Shown one piece after another: positions 1 to 25,066 of a stretch of DNA of 29,590 bases. Below the pieces are notes generated by a model. That model did no database searches and was not told where the DNA came from. It worked only from the letters and a program-made list of their open reading frames with translations. The stretch lies in contig JAEOUE010000149.1 of the NCBI GenBank assembly GCA_016839515.1, positions 1 to 29,590 on the forward strand. Direction: 5' to 3'. A program made the position numbers and the translations under genes. This DNA is from Candidatus Hodarchaeum mangrovi. GTDB lineage: Archaea > Asgardarchaeota > Heimdallarchaeia > Hodarchaeales > Hodarchaeaceae. Every line of letters begins with the position of its first letter. Position 1 is the stretch's first letter.

Positions 1-412
1 CTAATTCTAAAGGCTGAGGTTCTAGTGTTTTTTGTTCTTCTTGTAATTTGACCATTACTGTTTGAAGAGAATCGATACTTCTCTTCTTTTCTTGTTCATC
101 AATAAGACCAATCTCAACTTTTTTATCCAATTCATCAATTTCATTTAACAGCTGTTTAAGCTCTGATTTTATCTGTTTCTTTCTTTTTCGAGCATATAAA
201 CTATTAAGAATTGCTTCTGGTATATTTTCCGCTTCTTCTCTCGTAGGTGGACTGAATGTAATGGGTGTGGATGAAGCTTCACGTTGTGGAGTTAACTCTG
301 TAGGAGATGAATAGCTTTGAGTCTTCCTTGCAGGAGTTCCACAAAAACGACAAAAGCGAGCTGTTGCAGTAATTTCTTTTCCACAATTTGTGCAATAAGT
401 GGTTTGAGACAT
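1..412 (-). CDS. Zinc-ribbon + coiled-coil protein (5' part; runs off the window edge)
   Basis: Not in the ORF track; translated by hand from ATG at 412: MSQTTYCTNCGKEITATARFCRFCGTP (CxxC-x10-CxxC ribbon), a Ser/Pro/Thr linker, then a charged helical region (KQIKSELKQLLNEIDELDKKVEIGLIDEQEKK). Open to position 1. Confidence 0.85.
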   Translation of the reverse strand, partial: MSQTTYCTNCGKEITATARFCRFCGTPARKTQSYSSPTELTPQREASSTPITFSPPTREEAENIPEAILNSLYARKRKKQIKSELKQLLNEIDELDKKVEIGLIDEQEKKRSIDSLQTVMVKLQEEQKTLEPQPLEL

Positions 413-9054: not shown

Positions 9055-9915
9055 CTATTCAGGAATAATTTTCAAAGAAAAATCAATTGACTTTACAGAA
9101 TGAGTTAATGAACCAATAGAAATTATGTCTATCCCATTAATTAAGTAGTTTTTAAGATTTTTATCTGAAATTCCTCCGCTTACTTCAATTAGAGGACGAG
9201 ACTCTATTGAAAGTTTTTCTAAACTTTTTAAGGCTTTCTGGATCATTTCAATAGAAAAATCATCAAGCATGATAATATCTGGCTTATAAGCCAATGCAAT
9301 TTGAAATTCTTTGAGATTTTCAACTTCAATTTCAATTTTTTTTGAAAAAGAGGTTTTTTCAAAAGCTATACGTAAAATATTATCAATATTTACATCTTTT
9401 GAAATCTTTAAATGATTTTCTTTGATCAAAACAGTATCAGAAAGATTCATTCGGTGAGTATCACCTCCTCCTATTTCCACGGCATATTTTTCAAAAAATC
9501 TAAAACCAGGAGTGGTTTTTCGTGTTGCCGCAATTTTAATGTTCAACCCTGCATCTTTAACCAACTTCACAAGGCTTTGTGTATAAGTTGTTATCCCTGA
9601 TAATCTCATTAGTAGATTTAATGCTGTTCGTTCGATTAAAAGGATATCACGACTTAACCCTCTCATTTCTAAAACTGTATCACCTTTATTAATTGGTGTT
9701 CCATCTAAATATTTTGAATGAGTTTGAATATGAAATAGCTGACAAAGTATTTCACAAAATTCAATACCAGAGAGAATAGCTGCCTCTTTTGCAGTAATAT
9801 GAGCTTTAATATGTTTATTTGGAATTAGATGACTAGTAACATCTCCAAAAGCCGCATCTTCTTCAATTAAAGCGATTAATTTCTTTTCTAATAGTTTTTG
9901 TGGCAAATAGCCCAT
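9055..9915 (-). CDS. nadC: Quinolinate phosphoribosyltransferase (nicotinate-nucleotide pyrophosphorylase)
   Basis: GDVTS, ERTALN, TRKTTPG, HRMNLSD..LIKENH, IEIEVE, IMLD, EVSGGI, SIGSLTHS. Confidence 0.97.
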   Translation of the reverse strand: MGYLPQKLLEKKLIALIEEDAAFGDVTSHLIPNKHIKAHITAKEAAILSGIEFCEILCQLFHIQTHSKYLDGTPINKGDTVLEMRGLSRDILLIERTALNLLMRLSGITTYTQSLVKLVKDAGLNIKIAATRKTTPGFRFFEKYAVEIGGGDTHRMNLSDTVLIKENHLKISKDVNIDNILRIAFEKTSFSKKIEIEVENLKEFQIALAYKPDIIMLDDFSIEMIQKALKSLEKLSIESRPLIEVSGGISDKNLKNYLINGIDIISIGSLTHSVKSIDFSLKIIPE

Positions 9916-9936
9916 TTAAAATCCACTCTTAGCTTT

Positions 9937-10851
9937 TTAGGATAGCTGAAACATTCTTTCAATACATCTTCGTGAATGATTTGATATTTCACTTGGAATT
10001 TGAATTTGGTATCTTTCATATAAAAGTGAAAGATAAAGATTGTACAAAGTGATTTTCTTTTGTTGAATACAAATTGCTTCATTTAATAAGGGAATGAATT
10101 TTTTGTCTGGATATTCCTTTCTTAATCGATCTAAAAGACCGAGTTCTGTACCAATAATAAATTCTTTAGATTTAGAATGAGAGACCTCGATTATCATTCC
10201 TGCAGTAGAGGTAACTTTATCTGCTAGATCTTGAACTGCAGGTTCAGTTTCAGGATGTACGATTACTTCAGCATGAGGATATAGTTCTTTCTTCCTTCTA
10301 ACGTCTGAAGGTTGAAATTTCTGATGGACGTAACAATATCCATTATCAGGAATTGGAATGATCTTTTTATCAGGAACTTTTTGTTGTATGTAATATGCAA
10401 GATTTTTATCAGGACCAATTAATATCTCTCTTTCTTTGATTGAAGAAATAACTTTTACAGCGTTTCCTGAAGTGATGCAAATATCTGCAAATGCTCTTGA
10501 TTCAGCTGTTGAATTTATATATAAAACAACAATTGCATTGGGATACTTCGTTTTATATTCGGTTATGATTTTTGGAGAAAGCATATAAGCCATCGGACAT
10601 TTTACCATGGTAGAAGGTATTATAACTTTTTTAGACGGATTTAAAATTGCAGCTGTTTCAGCCATAAACTCTGCTCCTGCAAATACAATTAGATTAGCCT
10701 TTATTTTACTAACTTTATGTGCTAATTCTAAGCTATCTCCAGTAAAATCTGCTAAATCTTGAATAATGGGAGCTTGATAGTTATGAGCCAGTAAAATTGC
10801 GTTCTTTTGCTTTTTTAACACCATTATCTCATTTATCAAATCTTGTGACAA
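9937..10851 (-). CDS. nadA: Quinolinate synthase A
   Basis: ILLAHNYQ, GDSLEL, FMAETA, CPMA, YINS, CYVH, HPE and GTE motifs; TTG start; adjacent to nadC. Confidence 0.96.
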   Translation of the reverse strand: MSQDLINEIMVLKKQKNAILLAHNYQAPIIQDLADFTGDSLELAHKVSKIKANLIVFAGAEFMAETAAILNPSKKVIIPSTMVKCPMAYMLSPKIITEYKTKYPNAIVVLYINSTAESRAFADICITSGNAVKVISSIKEREILIGPDKNLAYYIQQKVPDKKIIPIPDNGYCYVHQKFQPSDVRRKKELYPHAEVIVHPETEPAVQDLADKVTSTAGMIIEVSHSKSKEFIIGTELGLLDRLRKEYPDKKFIPLLNEAICIQQKKITLYNLYLSLLYERYQIQIPSEISNHSRRCIERMFQLS

Positions 10852-11730: not shown

Positions 11731-12594
11731 TTATCCTTCATATGTGAGAATAAAGTTGGCTGTCGCTAATAATCTATTATCAACAGTATTCCATAAAAAA
11801 AGCAGTACCAAATAGTTTTCAGACACGGCTACTTGTGAAGTTGGACGAATTGTAAAATTAGCACTTGGAAAATTGGTATTCTCAAACTTTAATAATGAGA
11901 AAAAGTAGCTTGATGTATTAACATTATCAAGTTCAAAATAAATTTTTGACGATGAGTCTGTTGTGAATTCTAGCTTTAACTCAAGGTCTAAACTGCCATA
12001 ATTTTGAATTGTAATGGGTACATTCAATCCTCCAACAGGAAGTGTAGGATCAATTGGAGGAGATATAGTTACTGGCCCATAAGTATCTCCAATCTTTAAA
12101 ATTTCTGATTTAAATTTCTTTGCTGAACGTGGATTATCTGATCCCTCTGGATAGATGGTAACTTCCAAATAAATTGTATCATTTTGGGGTGTTAATTCTG
12201 ATGGATTATTCTCTGGTTCACAAGAAATAGGGAAGGTTTGAATACTCAAAGCAGGAAGAATTATCTCATTAACATCTAGGTTTAAAGTCCACCCCTCAAT
12301 AGTTGTAAGGTTAAACCAGCTTAAAGTAAAGCTATCAGAAAAGATTCTGACATTAGATCTTTCGATATTCTGAATTGTTACCTCAAATTGATCAATGTAT
12401 ATATCATCGTCAGTTGTTTTAAATTCTGAAATTGAAATGATGTCTATTTTTAAGGGAGTAGGAGCAGTAAACGTACCAAACATTACTATAGCAACTCCTA
12501 TACCAGCTACGACAACAAGACCTATTAACAAGACAGTAGCGATAACAGGAGAAACTCCACGCGATTTTCTTTGAAATTTCTTGAAATAATTCAT
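11731..12594 (-). CDS. Archaeal type IV pilin/archaellin-like protein (class III signal peptide)
   Basis: From ATG at 12594 (track starts at 12627): MNYFKKFQRKSRG|VSPVIATVLLIGLVVVAGIGVAIVM, a PibD/FlaK-type cleavage site plus hydrophobic helix; beta-rich remainder. Confidence 0.88.
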   Translation of the reverse strand: MNYFKKFQRKSRGVSPVIATVLLIGLVVVAGIGVAIVMFGTFTAPTPLKIDIISISEFKTTDDDIYIDQFEVTIQNIERSNVRIFSDSFTLSWFNLTTIEGWTLNLDVNEIILPALSIQTFPISCEPENNPSELTPQNDTIYLEVTIYPEGSDNPRSAKKFKSEILKIGDTYGPVTISPPIDPTLPVGGLNVPITIQNYGSLDLELKLEFTTDSSSKIYFELDNVNTSSYFFSLLKFENTNFPSANFTIRPTSQVAVSENYLVLLFLWNTVDNRLLATANFILTYEG

Positions 12595-12864
12595 TTTACC
12601 TATACTCCACGCATGAATTTCAAACAATCAGAATATTTGTCTTCTTCTTTGCATTTCCTAGATGAAAAGAACATGAATTACTAATTTAAAAACTCACTTT
12701 TTTACAAGAAATTCTTGTCATTTATCATTTTATGAAGTTTTTTCTAACATTCGATTTCCAAAACCTATAATTGAGATTTTAACTTTTTATTTCCATTGCA
12801 CCTAAATAAGGGGAAATAGATGGAAAATAAGTTTGACTGGAATAAGAACAAAGATATCAGCCAT

Positions 12865-12968: not shown

Positions 12969-14834
12969 TTACCATCTAGAGAAACCAATTCCACAAATTT
13001 CTGAAATCAATAGTAAAAAGAGGGCAATTTCCTCCATTTCTTTATTTGAATCACTTGTTACAAAAACTACTCCTTCTCCTTTTTTCAATGGCTCTAAAAT
13101 AGTTGATAATATAGTGTCTTGAGTTTTTGCGAGGGTCCAAAGTGCTTCTTGTTCTAATGCTTTGCGCATATCTGCTTCTTCTATGAATTTAGTAAATTTC
13201 GAGGGAATTTTTTCTTTCACGTAATCTCGATAGGGTGGAATAATAAGAATTGACCCATCTCGTGGGATTTTAAAGCGAGGAGAAAGATCATATCGTTTTA
13301 ATTGGGTTTGAGATAAATACTCAACAATACTTAACCATAGAAGTGCTCTTAATGCAATCTGGATTTTATCAATAAGTCCTTCAATTAAGATATGGTTATG
13401 TTGAAGCTGTATTTCTCCTCCAATCCTGACAGATAAATCTTCAAGAGTGTCCTTAAAAGCTGATAATCGGTCTTCAGGTATACATACGTGAATGGCGAAA
13501 TGATTGTCAACTCCTTGGAAAATTCGAATTTCAATATTCTTTCCATCATAATCTAATACTTGGGATTCGGTGATACTAATTGCATAAGGTGCAGTATCGA
13601 GAATAATAGGTAAACCATCAAAATTATAGGCAAGACCACTTTTTCTTGCGTTATCTAATCTTGCTAGCACTTCTGTGCTTACTTTTTGCGAAGGAATTGG
13701 TCTGATAGTCGTTGGTTTGACTTCTGCTTCAGTTTTTATATTAGGTTCTGGATATAATCGATCAGGTATAATTGGGATAGAATCAGGTTCTGCAGATATC
13801 ACAATCTCTGGTTTCACTTTTGGTATGGAAGATAATTGAACTTCAGCAGCTTTAGAAGGATGTGATTCAACAGTTAAACCTGAAAGGTCTGGAATTAGGT
13901 CTTCTTTTCTTTTCGGTGTAGAAATAGAGAGTTCACGGAGTTTTTGCATTAGTTGGGTTGACATTGTTACTACAATATCTTTTCCAGGTTGTAAAACTGT
14001 ATTTAGTAGAATTTCATTACGGATGAAAACATCCTCTCTTCTTGGGAGTAAAGCTATGGATTGAGCAATTTCATATGCATCTGCATTTGAAATAAAATTT
14101 CTCATTTTAGCTGCATTAGACTGATCCCCAAATAACCTAGCAATAACATCATAAACTTCTTCACTCGGTTCTGCGGAGAAATATTGGCGTAGAGGAGATT
14201 TTTGTCCTAGGACTAGAATGTTATCATTCTCTTCAATGCTAGGTAAAGGAGTAAATGATAGAATTTTCATCCGTTCAGATTTCAAAACGTTTTCTCTAAG
14301 CTCTGTTTGATTGTTTGGATCCACAAAATGGATATTGGAGGTTAATTGCTCTATTCCAAATTGTAAATCATGTGCAAAAGCAGTTAAAATTACTAGTGCA
14401 CCTAATATACCGCTTGGAGTTCTTGGAATAAGAAATACTGAATCATATGGTGCAGCTAATATCTGATAGAAACAATCAAGATGTTTGTTTTGTGCATCTA
14501 ATATATTTCCAGCTAAAAACTCTTCAAGAAGCTTAAGAATTATTCCCATCGCTGGAATTACTTGTTTTGCACTTTTTTCTAGTGGGATCAGAACAATTCC
14601 AACTAAAGAGTCATTCTGGTTTAGCTGAGAGGTTAAAAATATCATCCGATGATTTTCAAAACGAATAAAATGGATCTGTTCTCCATCTACTATTTTTTCA
14701 GAAAAAAGATTAATTACCTGGGTTACGCTTGCAGCGGTCTTCGAGTGTTTGGTGAGAGGTCCATAACCAGAGCTAAAGATTATTCTGTTTTGGTGAATCA
14801 CAAGGATGTCACTAGTTGATTCAGGGGTACTCAT
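12969..14834 (-). CDS. Hypothetical protein with N-terminal longin-like domain (possibly DENN-like), Pro-rich linker and C-terminal alpha/beta domain
   Basis: 621-aa ORF; N-terminal pattern ILVIH / RIIFS / helix / IHFIRF / RMIFL / LVGIVLI / helix matches longin topology; Pro/Glu/Ser-rich centre. Confidence 0.6.
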   Translation of the reverse strand: MSTPESTSDILVIHQNRIIFSSGYGPLTKHSKTAASVTQVINLFSEKIVDGEQIHFIRFENHRMIFLTSQLNQNDSLVGIVLIPLEKSAKQVIPAMGIILKLLEEFLAGNILDAQNKHLDCFYQILAAPYDSVFLIPRTPSGILGALVILTAFAHDLQFGIEQLTSNIHFVDPNNQTELRENVLKSERMKILSFTPLPSIEENDNILVLGQKSPLRQYFSAEPSEEVYDVIARLFGDQSNAAKMRNFISNADAYEIAQSIALLPRREDVFIRNEILLNTVLQPGKDIVVTMSTQLMQKLRELSISTPKRKEDLIPDLSGLTVESHPSKAAEVQLSSIPKVKPEIVISAEPDSIPIIPDRLYPEPNIKTEAEVKPTTIRPIPSQKVSTEVLARLDNARKSGLAYNFDGLPIILDTAPYAISITESQVLDYDGKNIEIRIFQGVDNHFAIHVCIPEDRLSAFKDTLEDLSVRIGGEIQLQHNHILIEGLIDKIQIALRALLWLSIVEYLSQTQLKRYDLSPRFKIPRDGSILIIPPYRDYVKEKIPSKFTKFIEEADMRKALEQEALWTLAKTQDTILSTILEPLKKGEGVVFVTSDSNKEMEEIALFLLLISEICGIGFSRW

Positions 14835-14882
14835 GCTTGTTCAATCGCTTGTACTCCAAACTTGATTTTTAAACTTTGATAT

Positions 14883-15515
14883 TCAAATTATTTGCTTCCA
14901 CAATAGTTTAAAATTTACTTTACCTTCTCTCAGAATAATTGGATTAGAATAATCGGTAAAATCAACAACAGTAGAGGGAGGATTTAGGGGTAAGGTCCCC
15001 TCATCAATCCATAAATCCACATCTTTGAATTTATGCTCATTTATCAAATTATCTATATTATAAACTGGATTATCTCCAGAAATATTGGCTGATGTTCCAA
15101 TAATAGGAATTCCTAACTTTTTAATAATACTTAATAACATTTTATGATCTGGAACTCGGAACGCAATCTTTTGAAAATTACTTACATTAAGAAATGAAGA
15201 GAGTTCATCTTGAGGGGTTCTTATAAAGAAAATACCCGTAAAGCTCCCAGGCCAGACTTCAGCTAACAATCTTTTTATATTCTCTGGGATTTCCAAATAT
15301 CTATTAATCATTTCTTCAGATATTAGTAAGCTTAATGGCTTGTTTATTGAACGTTCTTTGATTCGATAAATTTTCAAGATGTTTTTATCATTCCATTTCA
15401 GTCCAATGGTACCGAGCCCATAACAGGTATCAGTAGGGTAAACAACAATCCTTCCTCTCTGAAAATAATCAATAGCAATTGAAATGCAATCTAAATCTTT
15501 AATATTAAGAATCAT
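14883..15515 (-). CDS. sua5: L-threonylcarbamoyladenylate synthase (Sua5/TsaC/YrdC, short form)
   Basis: VVYPTDTCYGL, IKERS.NKPL, WPGSFT, AFRVPDH, GTSANISG, PSTVVD. Confidence 0.95.
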   Translation of the reverse strand: MILNIKDLDCISIAIDYFQRGRIVVYPTDTCYGLGTIGLKWNDKNILKIYRIKERSINKPLSLLISEEMINRYLEIPENIKRLLAEVWPGSFTGIFFIRTPQDELSSFLNVSNFQKIAFRVPDHKMLLSIIKKLGIPIIGTSANISGDNPVYNIDNLINEHKFKDVDLWIDEGTLPLNPPSTVVDFTDYSNPIILREGKVNFKLLWKQII

Positions 15516-15568
15516 ATGGGGTTCTGCTCTTCAAATTTTACGAGAGAAAAAAATTATTATTTACATGT

Positions 15569-16321
15569 TTATTGCTGTTGTTTCATCATTTGGATAATAA
15601 TTTCTCGAATCAAGCTTTCCACTGGTTTAATAACTCGATTTACACTTTGGGGTCTAAATTCCTTCTTTAATTTACCTGAATTGTCCACGATTTCAGTTCT
15701 ATTACCTTTAGAAAGAAGGTTTTTCAAATCATCTCGTGCATCAAGGCATGAGACTTCAATAATTCTAACTGCAGCATCTCTTAGATTAGCAGTGGTACCT
15801 GATTCACTTAATAGTTTCCCAACTTCTATTGAGCTTATACGGGATTCAATAGGAAGGTCCATTTTATTTAACATGATAAAATAGGGTAATGCACCACTCG
15901 CAAGTTTATCTCCAGCAAGATGATTAATCTCAATAAGAGAGTTTTTATTTTCTTCCCAACGCGATTTCTCTGAGTCAACAACAACAATTAAACCATGAGC
16001 TCCTCTTAAGACTACTTTTCGTTGTCCTGCATGACGTTCTTGTCCAGGTACAGTGAAAAGATGATATTTTAAAATTGGAAGGCCAGCTGTTGTTTTTCCA
16101 ATACCGAAAATCCCTTGATCAAAAAACAATGTTCTTCCTGTGGGATCTTCAAGTTTTAGGAATTTGTAAACATTCTCTGGATCCTCAAGACTCTTCAATA
16201 CTTTCGTGATGGTTAACGCTGTAGTCTTTCCTGCAAGAGTAGGACCCCAGAATACAATTTTAACAACAGGAACACCTTGATGATCCCTTTTAATGACTTC
16301 AAAGCTTGCATCTGCTTGCAT
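15569..16321 (-). CDS. MglA-like small GTPase
   Basis: KIVFWGPTLAGKTT (G1), GRTLFFD (switch I with Arg), HLFTVPGQ (G3 lacking Asp), NKMD (G4): the MglA-family signature. Confidence 0.88.
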   Translation of the reverse strand: MQADASFEVIKRDHQGVPVVKIVFWGPTLAGKTTALTITKVLKSLEDPENVYKFLKLEDPTGRTLFFDQGIFGIGKTTAGLPILKYHLFTVPGQERHAGQRKVVLRGAHGLIVVVDSEKSRWEENKNSLIEINHLAGDKLASGALPYFIMLNKMDLPIESRISSIEVGKLLSESGTTANLRDAAVRIIEVSCLDARDDLKNLLSKGNRTEIVDNSGKLKKEFRPQSVNRVIKPVESLIREIIIQMMKQQQ

Positions 16322-16347
16322 TGTTCTTCCCTAGTTTGAATAATGAA

Positions 16348-16896
16348 TTAAATTCTATTTTGTAATGTGAGAAATCGCTTTGCAAGATCTGAAAAGATTC
16401 GATCGATTTCTGGGCCACCATTTTTTGCAGAAGTTTCATAATAAACCATATCATACGATTTGGCTAATTCTTTAGCCTCTTCATAAGGAATTTTTCTTTC
16501 AAGTTCTTTATCTTTTTTATTCCCTGCGAGAGCAAGCGGAATGTCCTTGGAAGACATATATTTACGAAATTCCGTAATCCAATCTGGAACTGACACAAAT
16601 GATTTTTCATCATCCAAGGCAAACATAATCAAACAGGCATAAGCTCCTCGATAATAACTTGGACGTAATTTTCCGAAAAATTCCTGACCAGCAGTATCTA
16701 CAAGGATCAATTTAATATTATTGTTACCAACCCTGATTTTCTTCGTAGTTATATCTACTCCTAGAGTAGGCAGATAATTCTTGTCAAATTTGTTCTCAGC
16801 ATATCTTCTGATTAAAGAGGTTTTCCCTACTCCTCCTGAGCCAATAGCACATATTTTAAATAGATATTCATTACTAGACACTATAGATTCTTCCAA
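16348..16896 (-). CDS. Rab-like Ras-superfamily small GTPase
   Basis: YLFKICAIGSGGVGKTS, PTLGVD, DTAGQE, YYRGA, GNKKD, ETSAK; TTG start. Confidence 0.95.
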   Translation of the reverse strand: MEESIVSSNEYLFKICAIGSGGVGKTSLIRRYAENKFDKNYLPTLGVDITTKKIRVGNNNIKLILVDTAGQEFFGKLRPSYYRGAYACLIMFALDDEKSFVSVPDWITEFRKYMSSKDIPLALAGNKKDKELERKIPYEEAKELAKSYDMVYYETSAKNGGPEIDRIFSDLAKRFLTLQNRI

Positions 16897-16905
16897 GGAA
16901 TGAGA

Positions 16906-17853
16906 CTAAATACCTAATTTTGATAGATCTTGTAAAGATTTTCTCATATCTTCTATGAATTCATCCCGTTCAGAGCGAGTTTTTTCTCTAAGAAGTTCAA
17001 TAAACATAACTCTACCATTTTCTATGAATAATCGAACCTGATAATGTGAAGCAGGAAATATTCCTGATGGAAGATCATCCATAGGTTCTAATTTTACAAC
17101 ATCTTTTGAGAAAATAGCGACATGTTCTCGAATGGCAGAAAATACCGAATTACCAATAATAATAATCTCACGTTCTAATTCAGATGGGATATCAAGTTCT
17201 TTTAACTTATTTGTGACTTCATTAATGGATACATCCGCCTTCAGTTTCACAGGGGCTGTAACCACAACTTCTGTTTCCTTTACGATTCGAGTTGCTGGTC
17301 TCACTGGGGAGATAGTTGAGGTTGTTGTTTGAGTAGATGACGTTGGTTGTTTAACAGAAATATCAGGAGTTTTAGTTATGGGTGTAGGTTTTGGTGTTTG
17401 AGTAGGGGTTGGTACAGTTGATGGGACTGGACGTGAAGTTGATGCGGGTGCAGGACGAGGAGTTACAGAAGCAGAAGGGGCTGGAGTCGGTTTAGGCTGT
17501 GTAATGGGTGTTTCTGAAATAATTTGCTGTGGTTCTTCAGCTGGAACTTCACCGAACAGTGTAAGAAACTCTCTTCCTTCTAAACCAGGATCAAGACTGT
17601 CTATTCTATAAACCATCCCATATTGCTCTTGTCGCATCTGTTGAGCAGCTTTTGCTGAGATAAATTTTCGTCTAACTGGAGCTTTCTCCCCTTTCCAAAT
17701 AAAGATCTTTCTAGAATTTTCATCAACGATTATATATACATTATCATTAGAAAGATCGGATAGAGAGGAAACAGGGACGGGATTTAATTCACCATCATCT
17801 TTTACGGTATATTTTTTTACCAGTTCCGAATCAATCAACGTTAATACACCCAT
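16906..17853 (-). CDS. Gelsolin-domain protein (one gelsolin domain + Pro/Thr linker + C-terminal domain)
   Basis: DLSNDNVYIIVDENSRKIFIWKGEKAPVRRKFISAKAAQQM...DPGLEGREFLTLFG matches the gelsolin repeat consensus. Confidence 0.85.
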   Translation of the reverse strand: MGVLTLIDSELVKKYTVKDDGELNPVPVSSLSDLSNDNVYIIVDENSRKIFIWKGEKAPVRRKFISAKAAQQMRQEQYGMVYRIDSLDPGLEGREFLTLFGEVPAEEPQQIISETPITQPKPTPAPSASVTPRPAPASTSRPVPSTVPTPTQTPKPTPITKTPDISVKQPTSSTQTTTSTISPVRPATRIVKETEVVVTAPVKLKADVSINEVTNKLKELDIPSELEREIIIIGNSVFSAIREHVAIFSKDVVKLEPMDDLPSGIFPASHYQVRLFIENGRVMFIELLREKTRSERDEFIEDMRKSLQDLSKLGI

Positions 17854-18092
17854 TATGACAAGATTTGTTCTCTATTAATAATTTAAATTTATTATGAACA
17901 GATATATTATTAGAAATAATACTTTATTAAAAATTTAGGTTTCACCAATTTAAATTATTACAAATAAACTCACCTTCATATCTTATAGATTTGTATTCAA
18001 ATAATAATTGATTAACTAATAATATGGTTATAATGATATTTAAAAACGATAAAAAAAGTAAATTTTTATGAAGATTATTAGGAGACTAAAAA

Positions 18093-18920
18093 TTGACCTC
18101 AAATTCATGGTTCGATAATGGAATAGCAGCAATTCAGGAAAAGCGTTGGTTTGATGGATATCAAATGCTATTTGGGGCATTAGTAAGAGCATTAAGAGTT
18201 AAAGATTTAAAAACTGTTCATAAAATAATGATTAACAGTATTCCTCTTTTAGTAGTAGGTAAACAAAACAATTTAGCCTGTAATATAGCTTTATCTTTCA
18301 TTAATAACTTCCCTAAGATTGATGAAAGAGAATTAGAGTGGCTGGATCAAATACATATTTTATTAGATATTTTACACCAGAATAAACTTGAAAATTGTTT
18401 GGTTGAGATAAGAAGAGGAATTATCACAAATAAAAAATTTTCTTCTATAGAATTTATAATTGATTTAACAATACAAACAGAAATCTTAACGAAAAGTCCT
18501 AGAATTCAATATGATGTATTTTATTGCCAGGCTGGGTTATTTGCTTCTCAAAAAGACTATGTTCAGTGTTTTAAAACTCTTGAAACACTAAGTTCAAAAA
18601 CTGAATTAACACCTAGGATGAGAGTGTATCTGACTCTTTCCGAGCTAAATGCCTATGAAGTTGACAGTTGCGGTAGATACATCAAGGAAATGCCGGAAAA
18701 ATTAAGTTTCGAAGACGGGTTATATGTTGAAATTGTGACTCGCGCTTTTAGAGCAGTAGAGGCCTCTGACCAAAGAGATTTTTTCTCTTTGATGAAAGAA
18801 TATGATGATATCATTAATATTAAGGTTGATCCCCTTCTTAAGCTGTTATGTGATGGAATTTTAGAAATATTTCAGGGTTCGAATGGAAAAGGACTACTCT
18901 CATCTTTTTTTAAAAGTTAA
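18093..18920 (+). CDS. All-helical protein, Get4/TRC35-like
   Basis: 275-aa ORF with TTG start and GGAG at 18081; N- and C-terminal segments align by eye with remembered human GET4 (see findings). Confidence 0.6.
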   Translation: MTSNSWFDNGIAAIQEKRWFDGYQMLFGALVRALRVKDLKTVHKIMINSIPLLVVGKQNNLACNIALSFINNFPKIDERELEWLDQIHILLDILHQNKLENCLVEIRRGIITNKKFSSIEFIIDLTIQTEILTKSPRIQYDVFYCQAGLFASQKDYVQCFKTLETLSSKTELTPRMRVYLTLSELNAYEVDSCGRYIKEMPEKLSFEDGLYVEIVTRAFRAVEASDQRDFFSLMKEYDDIINIKVDPLLKLLCDGILEIFQGSNGKGLLSSFFKS

Positions 18921-19451
18921 TTAGGATTCTAATATTTCCAAAGCAAGCTTGATAGCTTCTTTACCGGAGTTTGCTGTCTTGATAATAGAATTAGTCTTTG
19001 AATTATAGAAATCCAGATTAGTACCAATTTCCTGACTCCAACCACCTACTCCCATTATGCAAATTAGGGGTTTCTTATATAACCAGGTATATGAAATCTC
19101 TGAAAGGGTACCCGTTGCGCCTCCACAAGCAATTACGACATCAGAAGCTAAAGGAATAATTGCATTTCGTGCCCAACCTAGCATTGTTGGAATTCGGACG
19201 GTTAAATATGGATTAATTTCAGGATCAGTAAGGTTACTTGGTAAAATTCCTATAGAAATCCCTTTTCCCTGGTATACTCCTTTACTTACTGCCTCCATTA
19301 CTCCCCCTCGTCCTCCACAAATGAGAATCTGTTTATAACGAGCAATTTCTTTTCCAATTTCCAGACATATATCATACTGCTTTTTTGATTGGATTATTGA
19401 ATCTCCAATACAACCAATTTGTAAGCTACGATATTCTTTATCTCTTGACAT
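18921..19451 (-). CDS. LOG/TIGR00725-family Rossmann-fold nucleotide-binding protein
   Basis: ICGGRGGVMEAVSKG, IGILP, ARNAII, GGATGTLSEI, GGWS. Confidence 0.92.
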   Translation of the reverse strand: MSRDKEYRSLQIGCIGDSIIQSKKQYDICLEIGKEIARYKQILICGGRGGVMEAVSKGVYQGKGISIGILPSNLTDPEINPYLTVRIPTMLGWARNAIIPLASDVVIACGGATGTLSEISYTWLYKKPLICIMGVGGWSQEIGTNLDFYNSKTNSIIKTANSGKEAIKLALEILES

Positions 19452-19992
19452 ATCCTTTTTTTCCTTCTATCGATGGTTCAACTACTCGTTTACCTCCAGG
19501 AAACTCAAGCGTAAAAACTTTAGGAATCAAATGTTCAAGAAATATTGCTAGAGCACTTACTTCAGAATGAGGTTGGTTGGTTATAGCAATATTATAGTCT
19601 GCAAGATAAAAAACTTTACCAGGGACTTTTTTCCCTCCTACGATGATAATAACTTCATCCAATAACTTTGGATCTTGTTGAATATTTTGAAACGAAATCG
19701 TGTTTTTAAAATCAGCTAAGTTGATGCCATACATTGTTAGATGAAATAGAATTTTCCCTGTTTCTTTCCAATTAAGAAGTAATGTCTTCCAATTCTCATA
19801 AGGATAAATGTCAATCTTGAAATTTCCACCCCATTCTGTTGTGACATTTTTCACAGTCTCTATAAGTGAAGTGTCATAATCGCCTGTAATAACAATATTT
19901 TTCGCTCCGAATGCTCTTGCGACAAGAACAAGATGAGAGCTAATCCTTTTATCACGATTAATTCTATGGCCTATACGAAGAACAGTAACCAA
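19438..19992 (-). CDS. trm56: tRNA (cytidine(56)-2'-O)-methyltransferase aTrm56 (SPOUT)
   Basis: LRIGHR..RDKRISSH..LVARAFGA, HLTMYG, VGGKKVP, NQPHSEVSALAIFL; archaeal-type enzyme. Confidence 0.95.
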   Translation of the reverse strand: MVTVLRIGHRINRDKRISSHLVLVARAFGAKNIVITGDYDTSLIETVKNVTTEWGGNFKIDIYPYENWKTLLLNWKETGKILFHLTMYGINLADFKNTISFQNIQQDPKLLDEVIIIVGGKKVPGKVFYLADYNIAITNQPHSEVSALAIFLEHLIPKVFTLEFPGGKRVVEPSIEGKKGYVKR

Positions 19993-20016: not shown

Positions 20017-20568
20017 TTAGGTTTTTGTGAGAAAATTTCGGATTGTTTTTGCTAATCTAGTGAATGATTCATCAACATTTGCTCCAGTTTTAGCTGAGGT
20101 TTCTAAATAGGGAATCTCAAAGTCTAAGTCTCTTTCTTTTTTAAGATCTGAAATAAAATTATAAACCTCTTCGACTTCTACACAACCTTCTGTTTCATTC
20201 CTTAGATCAACCTTATTACCTAAAACGACTATTGGCATTTTCCCTCTTCCTGAGTTTGAATAAAGTTCATTTATCCAAGCTTTTAAATTTGTAAATGAGT
20301 CCCGTCTTGTAATATCAAAAATCAACAATCCACCATGAGATCCTTTATAGTAGAGTTCTCGAACACTGTTGAATCTTGGTTGCCCAGCTAAATCCCAGAT
20401 TTGAAATTTTACGTCCTTTGGTCCTTCTTCAGTTTCAATGGTAGTTTTTTTTACTGCGAAATCAGCTCCGATAGTCATAACATATCCAGAAGAGAATTGT
20501 TTTCCTAAATATCGTTCACGTAACGCTGTTTTTCCTACCGCACCATCTCCTAGTAAGCATATTTTCAT
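20017..20568 (-). CDS. Rab-like Ras-superfamily small GTPase
   Basis: KICLLGDGAVGKT, TIGADF, FQIWDLAGQ.RF, YYKGS, IFDIT, GNKVD, ETSAKTG.NV. Confidence 0.96.
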   Translation of the reverse strand: MKICLLGDGAVGKTALRERYLGKQFSSGYVMTIGADFAVKKTTIETEEGPKDVKFQIWDLAGQPRFNSVRELYYKGSHGGLLIFDITRRDSFTNLKAWINELYSNSGRGKMPIVVLGNKVDLRNETEGCVEVEEVYNFISDLKKERDLDFEIPYLETSAKTGANVDESFTRLAKTIRNFLTKT

Positions 20569-21082: not shown

Positions 21083-23377
21083 ATGGTTGGATTAAAACTC
21101 TCTACAAAAGATCTAGATGAAATTATAAAGATACTTGGGATTGAAGATGATGCTCAAGGAAAAGTCTACTTAAGTTTGCTTTCATTAGGGAATGGAACAC
21201 TTGGCCAAATAAGTATACTCACTGGCCTTGATTACATTCAAACCCAAGAAGCATTGAAGGTTCTAATTGGCAGTAAGTTTGTTAAACGCATCCCAGGAGT
21301 GGTTGGTAGATATATAGCCTTGGAACCCTTTCTCAAATCATTTTTTTTGGGTTATGATCCGATCACTTTAGTCAATATTAGAAAAGAATCTGCTACTATG
21401 TTAAAAAATAATCTTAATAAGATCACAGATGATTTTGATAAAACAACTCAAGTTTTTCAAGAGAATGCTCAGGATCTTGAAAATGATTTTCTAGAAAGTC
21501 TTTCTCCCGTATCAGAGAATTTTAATGACCTAATTAATAATACAAAGCGTATTGTTGAATATTCAAAAACCCATTCAAGTATAAATATCCAAGAGTTCCA
21601 GACAAATATTAATGATGCCTTATTATATTTGGACAAATTAATCTATGACATTAAAACCGATTCTGAGAACAATATTGATCAAATACCCGCAATTTTTCGT
21701 AATTCTTCAAAGGAAATAGATTTACAACTTTCCAAAATTAAACAAGATATAACTGAGATTATTTCTGATTTTAGAGGTAAAAACTTGAATATCCTTGATT
21801 TATTCAAACGAGACTATAGTGAATTTATTACAAGTCAAGTAAATTCTCTAGATGAAGTCATGCATACCTTTAACACTAATCGAAATGCTGAGATTCATTC
21901 ATTTACAGCGAAAAAAAATAATCTAAGTCATTCTATTGAACAGCTACGTCAAAAAACTCAAGAGAAGAAGAATAATTTTGAAAAATTAAAAATAGGTTAT
22001 AATCAAGTCAATAGTTCATTTCTTTCCCTCTTTCCAGAGGTAGACAAAATATTGAAAGAGATGGGTACATTAATTAATGAATCGATCTCAGATATAAGTT
22101 CCAGAAAACTTTTCAAAGGCAAAGAAGAATTTCTTTCAAAACTAGATGAATTAGAAAACAGAAGGAAATCTCTTTTAGATCTGAATACTAGAAATGTCCC
22201 TATTTTGGACAAAATTACTCAACTAGAGGGAGTTTTAGCTGAAACTGAAAAGGAAGTAGTTGATGCTTCTGAAAATGGATTCGATCAGACAAAGATACTT
22301 CTTGAGAGCATTTCCAATACATTTACAGGATCTATTGAGGAATTAAAAGATAAAATTGAAGATGAAATAAAAAATTCAACTAAAGCATCTCTTATGTCTA
22401 ATGAAGAAAAAATACACTCACAAATAAATTTGACAAATGAGAAGATAAAAACGCTTTTTGAAAGCGTAAACAATGAAATTTTCAAGATTAATAATGATTT
22501 CTATACCAATTTGGTCAATTTAACTCAAAAAATAGCACAGGATTTTAAAAATCAATTAAATAACTTTTATAATGAATCAGTGAGTAATTTTCGTTCTAAA
22601 AATAATATAACTTCAATAAAGCGAAATATGGATGAATTAATTGCTTTAATTTTCTCAGAATCAAGTTTGGCGTTTACTCAAATTGATAATCTAAATGAAG
22701 CGTTTGAAACATATGTCTCTGGACTAAATGCTTTCACATCAAGCTTTGCCAATACTTTGCATGATGCTTTCTATTCCACTTTGACTGAAAGCAGAGAAAT
22801 AATTGATAATCAGGTTATGGAATTTGATGTTCTATTGGAACAAGAAATTTCGGCATTAATATTTACAATTAAAGAGATGAAGCAAAAATTGTCAAAAATT
22901 TTCGAATTATCACGTGTTTTAGAAACTTCAGATTTTGACTCTTCAATTATTAACAGTGATTTAGTAATCGGGGAATCTTCTATTATTATGTTGCTTCGTG
23001 ATTTGACCTTAAGAGCAAAGTCCTCATTAACCATCTTAATGCCAAGACCTGAATTACAAACGCTGATTGCGGCTTCCAAATTGCCAATGAAAACCCGTGT
23101 CAATATTATTGGAGATTTTAAGAAAGTTCCAGCATCTACATTAAAAAAAGTATTAACTGCCAATAATATTCGATTAAAACAACTAGATGGAATCGAATTT
23201 TGGGGATGCATTCGTGATGCAGAAGAATTACTAATCTGTCCCGAACCTAAAGATCCAGAAAAGGAGGAACTAGTTGGGGTAATTTCTGCAAATGAGAATT
23301 TAGTTGAATTGTTCTCACAAGAACTTATTACATATACCACTCGGAGTAAAGAAATCCTACCTCAAGATCTTGAATGA
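21083..23377 (+). CDS. TrmB-type winged-HTH protein with long coiled-coil and C-terminal PLD-like domain
   Basis: N-terminal KVYLSLLSLG.GTLGQIS..TGL....QEALKVL....V......RYIALEP; about 500 aa of nearly Pro-free amphipathic helix; C-terminal AKSSLTILMP...WGCIRDAEELLICP without an HKD motif. Confidence 0.8.
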   Translation: MVGLKLSTKDLDEIIKILGIEDDAQGKVYLSLLSLGNGTLGQISILTGLDYIQTQEALKVLIGSKFVKRIPGVVGRYIALEPFLKSFFLGYDPITLVNIRKESATMLKNNLNKITDDFDKTTQVFQENAQDLENDFLESLSPVSENFNDLINNTKRIVEYSKTHSSINIQEFQTNINDALLYLDKLIYDIKTDSENNIDQIPAIFRNSSKEIDLQLSKIKQDITEIISDFRGKNLNILDLFKRDYSEFITSQVNSLDEVMHTFNTNRNAEIHSFTAKKNNLSHSIEQLRQKTQEKKNNFEKLKIGYNQVNSSFLSLFPEVDKILKEMGTLINESISDISSRKLFKGKEEFLSKLDELENRRKSLLDLNTRNVPILDKITQLEGVLAETEKEVVDASENGFDQTKILLESISNTFTGSIEELKDKIEDEIKNSTKASLMSNEEKIHSQINLTNEKIKTLFESVNNEIFKINNDFYTNLVNLTQKIAQDFKNQLNNFYNESVSNFRSKNNITSIKRNMDELIALIFSESSLAFTQIDNLNEAFETYVSGLNAFTSSFANTLHDAFYSTLTESREIIDNQVMEFDVLLEQEISALIFTIKEMKQKLSKIFELSRVLETSDFDSSIINSDLVIGESSIIMLLRDLTLRAKSSLTILMPRPELQTLIAASKLPMKTRVNIIGDFKKVPASTLKKVLTANNIRLKQLDGIEFWGCIRDAEELLICPEPKDPEKEELVGVISANENLVELFSQELITYTTRSKEILPQDLE

Positions 23378-23396
23378 TAATTTTTCTGAAATCTCA

Positions 23397-24164
23397 TTAT
23401 TCTTTGTGAGCTACCATAAGAGCCTGTTTCAAGGTTGGGTCATCAAGGCTTACTCGATCAGTTCTAAAAATGTCTATTTTACCATCTTTAATAGTGAAAT
23501 CCACCCTTCCAGCTGAATATTCCACTGAATATTGCGATTTTTCCTTTTTAATATAAACATCACCAAGCTTAACAAGTTCAATAACGAAACGCCCAGCGAT
23601 TATTTCATTATTTAACTGATCAGGATCCTCCAATTTTGCAGATGTTGATGCTGTTTCTACAATATTTACAACCTCAGTTTCTATTTCATCTGAAAGTTTG
23701 CTAATAGTTTTTAAAGCATTGGGTTGATCAACAGCATGTTTCAAAAAACTTGGAACGTATTCCTCTTCTTCTGCTACTGGGAAAATCTTTGAAGGATGTT
23801 TTTCACCCTCTTCTTCGGTTTGTTTTCCTGGGGGGCCGAAAATATCATAACTGTATTTATGTCCCTCTTGAAGAAGAACACTTGGAATGGTATCTTCTTT
23901 TGTTATTTCAATGGTAAAACCTGTGCCGATTCGTATATTTGTTTTAGGAAGAGCAAAACCAGTTTTTGTAATAGAATTGGCTCTTCTCTCAATAATTTTT
24001 TTGGTAACAAGTGAATAATTTGAAGGGATATTTACATTTATTATTTCCTTTTCTTCGTCAATGACGAGACTTGCTTCCTCTCTTGGAGGGGCACTCTGAC
24101 TTTCTGAGACAATAAACTCGTCTGTTTTCCATATACACACGACTCTCAGGTTTTTTCCACTCAT
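23397..24164 (-). CDS. Hypothetical two-domain protein with acidic linker
   Basis: 255-aa ORF, 11 bp downstream of the 296-aa ORF, with GTAGGGGA upstream of the ATG. Confidence 0.8.
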   Translation of the reverse strand: MSGKNLRVVCIWKTDEFIVSESQSAPPREEASLVIDEEKEIINVNIPSNYSLVTKKIIERRANSITKTGFALPKTNIRIGTGFTIEITKEDTIPSVLLQEGHKYSYDIFGPPGKQTEEEGEKHPSKIFPVAEEEEYVPSFLKHAVDQPNALKTISKLSDEIETEVVNIVETASTSAKLEDPDQLNNEIIAGRFVIELVKLGDVYIKKEKSQYSVEYSAGRVDFTIKDGKIDIFRTDRVSLDDPTLKQALMVAHKE

Positions 24165-24175
24165 TGTCCCCTACC

Positions 24176-25066
24176 TCATTCATCATCTTCATCACGAAGG
24201 ATTTTTAATGCTTCACGAAGAGATAGTGAGAGCATATCATCGTCCTCATCACTTTTATCACTGATTTCATCGCTTTTAAGTAGCTTGTCTGCTAATGATG
24301 ATTTTGGGGATTCAGGTTCTTCTAAACTGGCGGATTGGATTTTTTTGTCTAATTCACCGAATTTATCAGGAGCTGGACTAATATCAGGAATTCGTGGCTC
24401 TATCCGACTCACAGGCATTTCTGCTATAACAGGTTCAGGTTTTGGTTTGACTGGTTTTGGAACTGTCTCATTTTTGGGAATTATAGGGCTTGGGATAGGT
24501 TTAGGTTTGGGTACTTCTTGAATTGGGATAGGTTTAGGTTTGGGTACTTCTTGAACTGGGATGGGTTCAGGTTTTGGGGTTATGGGAGTGGGGGAAGGTG
24601 CTGGAGTTGAAGTTGGTTCTGATTGAATCATTTCTTCTAAAGGAGATACTGGTTCTTCTTCTGGAGCTATTGGTTCTTTTTCTTTAAGAATTCCTTCTAA
24701 AGGAGAAACAACATCTTCTTCTAGACCTATTCTTCCTTTTAAGTTATTACCTGTGTTTGATAAAAATGAAGAGAAGGTTTCAGGATTTTTCTTATGGACG
24801 GTCCATTGTTTAATAACTAATCGTGCCATATCCCGAACTCCTTCCCAAAATTTGGGTGACTTGCCTTCACGATCAGCTACAGGTAGATCAATTCCTAGAC
24901 TCTGTCCTAAGGAAGAGGAGACTCTTGCGTCTGCTTTTGCTTCAATTTGAGATAAGAAATCATTTAATTTATTAATCGTTTGTGTTTCTGAAAGATTTTT
25001 CAAAAGACGATGGATTAGATCCAAGGTTTCTATGGCAGCTTTAATATAAGTAGGATCAATACTCAT
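24176..25066 (-). CDS. Hypothetical protein: helical N-terminal domain, Pro-rich repeat linker, acidic amphipathic C-terminal helix
   Basis: 296-aa ORF; PKPEPIPVQEVPKPKPIPIQEVPKPKPIP repeats; ends DDDMLSLSLREALKILRDEDDE. Confidence 0.82.
   Translation of the reverse strand: MSIDPTYIKAAIETLDLIHRLLKNLSETQTINKLNDFLSQIEAKADARVSSSLGQSLGIDLPVADREGKSPKFWEGVRDMARLVIKQWTVHKKNPETFSSFLSNTGNNLKGRIGLEEDVVSPLEGILKEKEPIAPEEEPVSPLEEMIQSEPTSTPAPSPTPITPKPEPIPVQEVPKPKPIPIQEVPKPKPIPSPIIPKNETVPKPVKPKPEPVIAEMPVSRIEPRIPDISPAPDKFGELDKKIQSASLEEPESPKSSLADKLLKSDEISDKSDEDDDMLSLSLREALKILRDEDDE
24490..24555. repeat. Exact 33-bp tandem repeat x2 (plus degenerate third copy), in frame
   Basis: ttgggataggtttaggtttgggtacttcttgaa at 24490-24522 and 24523-24555; encodes (I/V)QEVPKPKPIP. 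Confidence 0.92.
24601..24720. repeat. Degenerate 60-bp tandem duplication, in frame
   Basis: cttctaaaggaga at 24634 and 24694; both units begin ctggag and end tcttctt; encodes EEDVVSPLE / EEEPVSPLE. Confidence 0.7.

Follow-up and report, generated by a model that had tools for sequence, protein, structure and literature searches.

A tight, conserved gene cluster for a gelsolin-domain protein, a Rab-like GTPase and an MglA-family GTPase in Hodarchaeales: a candidate for control of the archaeal actin skeleton

The stretch of DNA analysed here, 29,590 nucleotides long and hereafter called the window, comes from Candidatus Hodarchaeum mangrovi, an archaeon closely akin to the ancestors of complex cells (Asgardarchaeota; Heimdallarchaeia; Hodarchaeales; GenBank assembly GCA_016839515.1, contig JAEOUE010000149.1, positions 1 to 29,590). 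It carries on its minus strand five consecutive genes, designated G1 to G5, that join a gelsolin-domain protein and two small GTPases to a tRNA-modification enzyme and a lineage-restricted protein (lengths in amino acids, aa):

G1, 17853..16906, minus strand: 315 aa, gelsolin-domain protein (Pfam and PDB matches)
G2, 16896..16348, minus strand: 182 aa by the longest open reading frame (ORF), Rab-like small GTPase (Pfam Ras)
G3, 16321..15569, minus strand: 250 aa, MglA-family small GTPase (PDB MglA matches)
G4, 15515..14883, minus strand: 210 aa, TsaC/YrdC-type L-threonylcarbamoyladenylate synthase (TIGR00057 and Pfam)
G5, 14834..12969, minus strand: 621 aa, lineage-restricted protein (ORF and AlphaFold2 (AF2) model)

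An earlier note on this DNA took the five genes for one apparent operon that couples an actin regulator to two GTPases and a longin protein. The co-orientation and the gaps of 9, 26, 53 and 48 nt on which that proposal rested are borne out by the ORF list, an arrangement that is in itself not unusual, and the locus is probably a conserved Hodarchaeales gene cluster rather than a single five-gene operon.

G1 consists of an N-terminal gelsolin domain and a C-terminal domain, here called X, which are separated by a long linker:

G1 gelsolin domain, residues 12-98, 17560..17820, minus strand: Pfam match at residues 23-96
G1 linker, residues ~105-205, minus strand: ~100 residues, disordered, Pro/Thr/Ala-rich
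G1 X domain, residues 205-315, 16909..17241, minus strand: conserved C-terminal part

The gelsolin label given to G1 holds, with a Pfam Gelsolin score of 23.5 bits (cut-off 21), phmmer matches in the PDB to Thor 2DGel3 (4.1e-10) and Heimdall 2DGel (1.7e-8), and an AF2 model whose gelsolin part (residues 11-100) has a predicted local distance difference test score (pLDDT) above 90. In Foldseek the model has 107 PDB matches at E ≤ 0.001, among them Thor ProGel with a template modelling score (TM, by target) of 0.84 and a root-mean-square deviation (rmsd) of 2.2 Å. By sequence and predicted fold, this domain matches the Asgard gelsolins (ProGel, 1DGelX and 2DGel), closely so those bound to actin; distant relatives of G1 are 24-45% identical to it. 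X is modelled as a helix, five strands and a helix (pLDDT roughly 60-89); it has no significant match in Pfam (E ≤ 10) or among PDB sequences, and all 50 Foldseek matches listed for G1 fall on the gelsolin domain, none of them naming the fold of X. There is likewise no sign that X is a second gelsolin domain in an hhalign repeat test of four G5 and two G1 segments (15 pairs, at most 6.7% probability). One gelsolin domain followed by a C-terminal extension is also the layout of Thor 1DGelX, a likeness judged from the published description; the extension of the Thor protein is predicted to be a coiled coil, unlike the helix, five strands and helix modelled for G1 (PMC7444086). Thor gelsolins, 1DGelX included, are reported to sever and nucleate actin in vitro, and the term "operon" occurs 0 times in the available text of the same paper (Akil et al. 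2020, PMC7444086).

The two GTPases also bear out their earlier labels. G2 matches Pfam Ras at 1.3e-47, and of its 60 best matches listed among PDB sequences 59 bear a Rab or Ypt name, the first being Rab21 (4.7e-39). Its C-terminus reads ...AKRFLTLQNRI and the last 90 residues hold no cysteine, so there is no prenylation motif; because this C-terminal cysteine motif is absent, G2 is called Rab-like, as other Asgard proteins are. MglA proteins take the first four places among the PDB matches of G3 (3.5e-19 to 2.3e-16), ahead of an Arf-like protein at 2.6e-3. MglA proteins are marked by a Thr in place of Asp in the third GTPase motif (TxxGQ) and by an intrinsic switch-I arginine (PMC3000849, PMC4316618), and G3 has both the motif, as TVPGQ, and the arginine. 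The stretches GKTT, R63-T64, T90-x-P-G-Q94 and NKMD are invariant in 26 homologues of G3, and R63 is the counterpart of the MglA arginine in ...RTLFFD; the protein further carries a C-terminal extension of about 50 aa. In public annotation the homologues appear as "ADP-ribosylation factor-like" or "SRP receptor beta". Paralogues of G3 at 45-52% identity occur in the same genomes; the relatives of G3 at 45-74% comprise such paralogues as well as proteins of other lineages. Asgard MglA-like GTPases and Roadblock proteins are already known (PMC10933270), and MglA1 and MglA2-5 groups have been recognised among Asgard GTPases (10.1101/2024.02.28.582541).

The MglA-MglB switch of Myxococcus xanthus and Thermus thermophilus resembles G3 in the TVPGQ motif, the switch-I arginine, the NKMD motif and the best PDB matches. 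It differs in that G3 has no Roadblock/MglB gene nearby, carries the extra extension of ~50 aa, has a Rab-like GTPase and a gelsolin protein as its companions instead of motility-machinery genes, and belongs to a cluster whose pilin neighbour is not conserved. In 390 of 449 cases, an MglA gene has a Roadblock gene coupled to it no more than four genes away (Wuichet & Sogaard-Andersen, PMC4316618). None of the 30 window proteins matches Pfam Robl_LC7, nor do the separate pieces of G1 and G5 at E ≤ 10; given the usual coupling and its absence here, a substitute for the Roadblock partner is therefore expected.

G4, called sua5 in the earlier note, is confirmed as the short TsaC/YrdC form without the Sua5 C-terminal domain; its 210 aa score 146.3 bits with TIGR00057 (cut-off 123.2) and match Pfam Sua5_yciO_yrdC at 3.5e-39. 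It is probably a housekeeping tRNA-modification (t6A) passenger in the cluster.

A single scan of genomes with the alignment of G5 yielded 20 loci, each from a record of an Asgard metagenome-assembled genome (MAG), with G5 identities of 51-60%. The order G1-G2-G3-G4-G5 on one strand is found in all 17 loci with uninterrupted upstream sequence. Loci L003 and L012, which begin at or just before G5, were set aside, and L008 was rejected as an exception to the gene order, the N runs in its tsaC beside an ABC-transporter gene being a scaffold join. The mean identity is highest for G3 (85.8% over 17 loci), the most conserved protein of the window, followed by the beta subunit of pyruvate:ferredoxin oxidoreductase (PFOR; 80.9%), G2 (68.8%), G5 (54.6%) and G4 (49.6%); G1 stands at 56.2% in the six loci with full-length high-scoring segment pairs.

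The spacing of the genes sets the first three apart. G1 and G2 overlap by 4 nt in L013 and L014, lie 16-25 nt apart in 10 loci when the G2 start is placed by homology, and 18-28 nt apart in 5 further loci by the longest ORF; overlapping or at most 28 nt apart, they leave no room for a promoter. A GGAG-type box with GTG or TTG marks the start of G2 in most loci. Judged by these loci, the true start of G2 in the window is probably an in-frame GTG at 16881, preceded by GGAAG, because the 10 loci mentioned begin G2 with GTG or TTG 16-25 nt past the G1 stop; the G1-G2 gap would therefore be 24 nt, not 9. G2-G3 spacers measure 24-78 nt in 17 loci and hold a conserved AGGGA box before the ATG (8 nt before it in the window). 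The spacer between G3 and G4 is longer (40-133 nt in 17 loci) and often T- or pyrimidine-rich, with a GGAG-type box before GTG, TTG or ATG in many loci, and that between G4 and G5 measures 42-156 nt, reaching 265 nt in L008. Three stretches in and around the cluster hold candidate transcription signals:

TATA-like box TTTAAATT, 17880..17887, minus strand: 27-34 nt upstream of the G1 ATG, in a 239-nt spacer
G3-G4 spacer, 15516..15568, minus strand: A/T-rich stretch and a T7 run that may be a weak archaeal terminator
BRE/TATA-like box AAAGTTTAAAAAT, 14865..14877, minus strand: TATA part at -39..-32 from the G5 ATG

The box before G1 may act as a promoter; a conserved AAGCTTTATA(A/T)AA box stands ~30-45 nt upstream of the G1 start in 8 of the 13 loci examined. 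In 13 of the 20 loci the 120 nt upstream of G5 contain the motif A[AC][CT]TTAATAA, twelve times at exactly -41 and once at -59, the latter distance being measured from a match starting at residue 7; the window has a variant form, TTTAAAAA, at -39..-32. All loci together hold 24 copies of this motif on both strands, which amounts to ~0.004 expected per 120-nt stretch. Set against the archaeal consensus of B recognition element (BRE) and TATA box, the box upstream of G5 looks like an archaeal promoter. T-runs past G3 were rejected as terminators: at least five T occur in ~10 of 18 spacers, yet similar runs occur in other spacers. A scan for sigma-70 promoters and hairpin terminators, which does not apply to archaea, gave 28 promoter-like sites against 28.3 expected. 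This anatomy suggests a tight G1-G2-G3 unit, followed by tsaC and then by a separately promoted G5, with read-through possible.

The box before G5, seen in 13 of the 20 loci, and the long, variable G3-G4 spacer speak against the single five-gene operon of the earlier note. That note also recorded a pilin gene following on the same strand, which is there:

pilin-like ORF, 12627..11731, minus strand: 298 aa, 341 nt beyond G5 (TIGR02537)

Its match to TIGR02537, the archaeal pilin N-terminal domain, reaches 26.9 bits (cut-off 20), but the gene is present in 10 and absent from 9 of 19 informative loci, as a variable insert between G5 and a diphthamide-synthase-like gene. In its full form the proposal makes of all this a two-GTPase polarity system, in which a bacterial-type MglA and a eukaryote-type Rab switch steer actin protrusions and pili and the longin protein serves as exchange factor for the Rab. 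Co-orientation, short gaps, the gene identities, the pilin domain and an order kept in 17 of 17 informative loci speak for it; we nevertheless consider it very improbable, since the pilin gene comes and goes at a distance of 341 nt, a promoter-like box stands directly before G5, no role for TsaC in a polarity system is known, the window lacks a Roadblock/MglB match and the synteny is non-specific, as set out below.

G5, which is 100% identical to an NCBI protein of Candidatus Hodarchaeum mangrovi, divides into four parts in its AF2 model (mean pLDDT 75.5, predicted TM score (pTM) 0.47):

G5 longin-like part, residues 10-107, 14514..14807, minus strand: strand-strand-helix-strand-strand-strand-helix, pLDDT 50-79
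G5 middle, residues 116-305, 13920..14489, minus strand: confidently modelled alpha/beta and helical bundle
G5 linker, residues 306-381, 13692..13919, minus strand: disordered in the model
G5 C-terminal half, residues 382-621, 12972..13691, minus strand: alpha/beta, ending in an invariant ...S-R-W

The family is small, with 79 clusters in a library of 5.8 billion proteins and, at E ≤ 0.001, 31 representatives in a set of 1.84 billion, and its named members are nearly all from Hodarchaeales, Heimdall-type or other Asgard archaea, with one partial sequence from Pacearchaeota. G5 belongs to no family in Pfam or NCBIfam; Pfam also finds none for 28 aligned relatives, 18 distant relatives or four domain pieces (E ≤ 10), and PDB sequences yield none with the single query or with a 28-sequence profile (best E 1.1, which is noise). 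An ABC_tran match of cluster P0336 was rejected as a clue to the family, being part of a chimeric protein. Clusters P0079 and P0336 both fuse a piece of G5 to ABC_tran and look like chimeras of the kind seen in L008, where N runs inside tsaC join it to an ABC-transporter gene (9100-9735) in a record titled "chromosome". In the wider family, 20 residue columns are invariant besides the start methionine: G23, G25, L43, F56, R58, F59, F66, P94, G142 and D156 and, in the C-terminal half, I532, P544, L583, G588, E599, S611, G615, S619, R620 and W621. The C-terminal end (12972-12992), G-[IV]-[GSA]-[FWY]-S-R-W, is kept even in full-length members that are 23-28% identical overall, and the pattern suggests that the invariant SRW tail is a docking or recognition tail.

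The earlier note called G5 longin-like. Sequence does not confirm the label, although weak leads from fold and features point to a longin. An Atlas search with whole G5 gave no usable match; with residues 1-115, the top clusters by shared features are Asgard ones, the first annotated "First Longin domain of FUZ, MON1 and HPS1" (0.88) and the second (0.87) with Fuz_longin_1 in 34% of its members, where the mark is 0.9 and true family members usually share at least 170 features against 156 or fewer for the head of G5. Foldseek aligns G5 with chains of MON1A-CCZ1 and Fuzzy-Inturned/CPLANE at probabilities of 0.95-0.99 over 168-178 columns, with 9lol_B at 0.99 (168 columns), 9rs8_A and 9l0d_A at 0.98 each, 7q3d_C at 0.95 and, over 395 columns, 9rs6_A; against chains of tri-longin Rab guanine nucleotide exchange factors (GEFs) the E-values are 5e-3 to 4e-2 and the rmsd is 7.5-8.8 Å. 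In the same hhalign test G5 has no internal repeats (at most 6.7% probability), and only its first ~110 residues show longin topology. It is thus plausible, by the model, that the head of G5 is longin-like. The tri-longin Rab GEFs (Mon1-Ccz1, Fuzzy-Inturned, HPS1-HPS4) are the known proteins whose first longin domain it resembles in Foldseek and features, and a Rab-like gene, G2, lies three genes away; they differ in that G5 shows one longin-like module, the rest being alpha/beta with DHH-like matches, and that G5 has no Pfam match and no known second subunit. Longins that serve as GAPs (GTPase-activating proteins) of the folliculin/SMCR8 type bear a GP motif just before the second strand and a neighbouring arginine finger (PMC12290439). 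In G5 the loop before strand 2 reads H-Q-N-R, at a place where the model is uncertain, and a G-x-G-(P) stretch, whose proline is not conserved, comes after strand 2.

The DHH-like matches raise another explanation, in which G5 descends from a DHH/DHHA1 phosphoesterase (RecJ/Cdc45/NrnA fold) that has lost its activity and now serves as a nucleic-acid or nucleotide scaffold, perhaps with TsaC, unrelated to the GTPases. DHH/DHHA1 enzymes bind metal through the motifs DxD, D, DHH and D, together with GGGH. Among the Foldseek matches listed, the 11 at E ≤ 0.001 are all DHH/DHHA1 proteins over ~400-575 columns, including a PAP phosphatase (8a8k, 2.0e-5), PggH, archaeal GAN/RecJ-Cdc45 and Pyrococcus RecJ; a C-Ala (DHHA1-like) domain matches as well, and G5 adjoins tsaC. 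These alignments reach a TM of at most 0.24 with an rmsd of 22-26 Å, however, and no DHH/DHHA1 match appears in Pfam, even at lenient E or in the 28 and 18 family members. The 20 invariant columns hold no DxD, DHH or GGGH-type cluster, and the N-terminal 115 residues point to longin clusters, so that we regard such a descent as unlikely.

A further explanation starts from the layout of a DENN module, in which a longin-like module is followed by an alpha/beta and a helical part. Liu et al. predicted an operon of Roadblock (LAMTOR1-like), Rab-like and DENN genes in most Asgard archaea and proposed it as a GEF module, while finding most eukaryotic-signature genes outside conserved neighbourhoods (10.1101/2020.10.19.343400). 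The cluster could be a Hodarchaeales elaboration of this operon, that is, a folliculin-like GEF/GAP module for G2 in which the X domain of G1 takes the position of the Roadblock-superfamily protein and G5 that of the DENN-type subunit. As in the published operon, a Rab-like GTPase gene would be joined to genes for Roadblock/longin-superfamily proteins in a conserved neighbourhood; the order of X domain, Rab-like protein and, further on, G5 parallels the published one, and the N-terminal half of G5 runs from a longin-like module into an alpha/beta and a helical part. The differences lie in the gelsolin domain, the MglA-family GTPase and tsaC, all found here, and in DENN and Roadblock, which are not detected: Pfam gives no DENN, uDENN, Folliculin or Robl_LC7 match in G1, G5 or 46 relatives of G5, no DENN chain is among the 50 Foldseek matches listed for G5, and the modelled X lacks the central helix of Roadblock. 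The relatives recovered here by name are, moreover, almost all of Hodarchaeales type. We give this derivation little credence.

Eukaryotic gelsolin is regulated by calcium and phosphoinositides. For the cluster described here we tentatively favour, without holding it to be established, that G1, G2 and G3 are co-expressed and that control of the actin regulator G1 lies with the GTPases; G5 may then be a longin-type regulator, and tsaC a passenger. G1, G2 and G3 would be made together as a three-cistron unit. G2, G3 or both would be nucleotide switches that recruit, release or gate G1 through its X domain, and actin severing or capping by G1 would in this way be directed to particular places on the cell body or on protrusions. 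G5 would be transcribed at least partly from its own promoter as a lineage-specific scaffold whose N-terminus is like the first longin domain of exchange factors of the Fuzzy/Mon1/HPS1 type, and it would be the best local candidate for a GEF- or GAP-like platform for one of the GTPases, replacing the absent Roadblock protein MglB. A stronger version, in which the Rab-like and MglA GTPases gate G1 directly through X and G5 is a relative of the tri-longin Rab GEF ancestor that loads one of them, appears doubtful to us. The logic proposed is that of eukaryotic Rho/Rac/Arf control of actin regulators, in which a switch positions an actin-remodelling protein; the likeness is conceptual only, and instead of Rho the cluster has Rab-like and MglA-like GTPases. 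A complex prediction for X (residues 200-315) with G2 and G3, entered as alignments, scored 0.01 and 0.00 against a mark of 0.32; it was run without controls and is evidence neither way. Of the two-GTPase actin module put forward in the earlier note, then, what remains is a hypothesis for G1 to G3, and the five-gene system is not demonstrated.

Several observations weigh against this reading. Gene order is conserved well beyond near-identical genomes (G5 at 51-60% identity), contrary to what the earlier note had named as refuting its proposal, but the conservation is not specific to the five genes. Some 24 window genes, with housekeeping ones among them, run collinear wherever the loci reach: on one side the PFOR subunits, ELP3, a GT4 glycosyltransferase, an NTP-transferase, MazG, a hexapeptide transferase, NadC, NadA and the diphthamide-synthase-like protein, and on the other an SLOG protein, aTrm56, a second Rab-like GTPase, a 764-aa TrmB-like protein and two unknown proteins, with only the pilin (10/19), nadA (10/17) and nadC variable. 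Conserved order therefore carries no specific signal for G1 to G5, and all loci come from a single lineage. A conserved promoter-like box precedes G5, and tsaC stands between this gene and those of the GTPases; the best Foldseek matches of G5 are DHH/DHHA1 proteins and not longins, its longin call is weak (pLDDT 50-79, Atlas scores under 0.9, 156 shared features), and none of the longin, Mon1, Fuz, Intu and HPS1 profiles of Pfam matches it. In the cultured Asgard strain MK-D1, small GTPase genes generally lie outside operons with regulators (Tran et al., PMC10933270). A second Rab-like gene in the same window also adjoins the unrelated genes aTrm56 and SLOG, in an order kept in 14 loci:

second Rab-like GTPase, 20017-20568, minus strand: Pfam Ras 4.4e-44
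aTrm56, 19438-19992, minus strand: 24 nt downstream of the second Rab-like gene
SLOG cluster-4 gene, 18921-19451, minus strand: overlaps aTrm56 by 14 nt

Adjacency of GTPase genes to unrelated genes is therefore normal here. A small-GTPase gene stands beside a tRNA-modification gene twice in the window, as the second Rab-like gene beside aTrm56 and as G3 beside tsaC.

Nearly as likely as a GTPase-controlled gelsolin is that the five genes are unrelated neighbours kept together by lineage-wide collinearity, G1 to G3 sharing at most a transcript and not a pathway: G1 alone would regulate actin, the GTPases would serve other processes, TsaC would make t6A and G5 would be unrelated. Collinearity from the PFOR genes to a 296-aa ORF (24176-25066) in the loci that reach that far fits this account, as do the second Rab-like gene beside Trm56 and SLOG, tsaC inside the cluster and the promoter-like box of G5. 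Covariation of distance matrices (11 genes, 55 pairs, only 8 taxa, 13 of the 20 loci having been dropped for want of an ORF of at least 60% coverage for one of the genes) likewise shows no excess among G1 to G5, though on too few taxa to be informative, with -0.22 for G1-G2, -0.41 for G2-G3, 0.44 for G3-G5, 0.56 for G4-G5 and the top value, 0.76, for G2-SLOG. What such neighbours account for less well is the exceptionally tight spacing of G1-G2-G3, 4-nt overlaps included, the presence of three signalling or cytoskeletal proteins and a longin-like one, which exceeds a random draw from a mostly metabolic stretch, and a G3 that has no usual Roadblock partner.

Gelsolins and profilins are, to our knowledge, the only Asgard actin regulators known so far. 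Asgard archaea use an actin cytoskeleton both to crawl and to reshape themselves. In a 2026 study, crawling was found to depend on actin, also in a cultured strain of Hodarchaeales, and its regulation is described as open; gelsolins, a profilin and one "ARF-GTPase" co-precipitate with Lokiactin (PMC13716822). The cluster is a concrete, though unproven, candidate for how Hodarchaeales steer their actin skeleton. With G1 co-encoded with two small GTPases, three or four proteins would suffice for testing a GTPase-actin link directly, and the order in which the cluster is found, Hodarchaeales, now includes a cultured strain. An Asgard small GTPase gene beside genes for regulators or effectors is a known kind of arrangement; this one combines gelsolin, Rab-like and MglA genes and includes two uncharacterised modules, the C-terminal domain of G1 and the G5 family with its longin-like head and invariant SRW tail. 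Among the titles and abstract openings listed in full-text searches, none describes this cluster or the G5 family, supplements and figures not being covered. If the gating of G1 and the kinship of G5 with GEFs were true, the cluster would stand as a forerunner, in archaea, of actin polarity steered by GTPases; should the link prove unreal, the locus would show that gene order is conserved here over tens of kilobases and is not readable as evidence of function.

Around the cluster, the gene facing G1 across the 239-nt spacer is the fastest-evolving of the block, with a mean identity of only 36%, no Pfam or NCBIfam match and a position kept in 14 loci:

divergent ORF, 18093-18920, plus strand: 275 aa, separated from G1 by the 239-nt AT-rich spacer (ORF list)

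Three more genes, at 21083-25066, keep their position in the loci; they encode the 764-aa protein, with a weak N-terminal helix-turn-helix of TrmB type (21.4 bits, below the cut-off), and proteins of 255 aa and 296 aa, the latter (24176-25066) with a Pro-rich middle. On the other side, in the window region 9055-10851, nadA is absent from 7 of the 17 loci that reach its position, the flanking order being unchanged; nadC is absent from L015 and L016, and in L008 neither nadC nor genes beyond nadA were found. ARAGORN and Rfam detect a single RNA gene in the window, a tRNA-Ala (GGC) at 610-685 on the minus strand.

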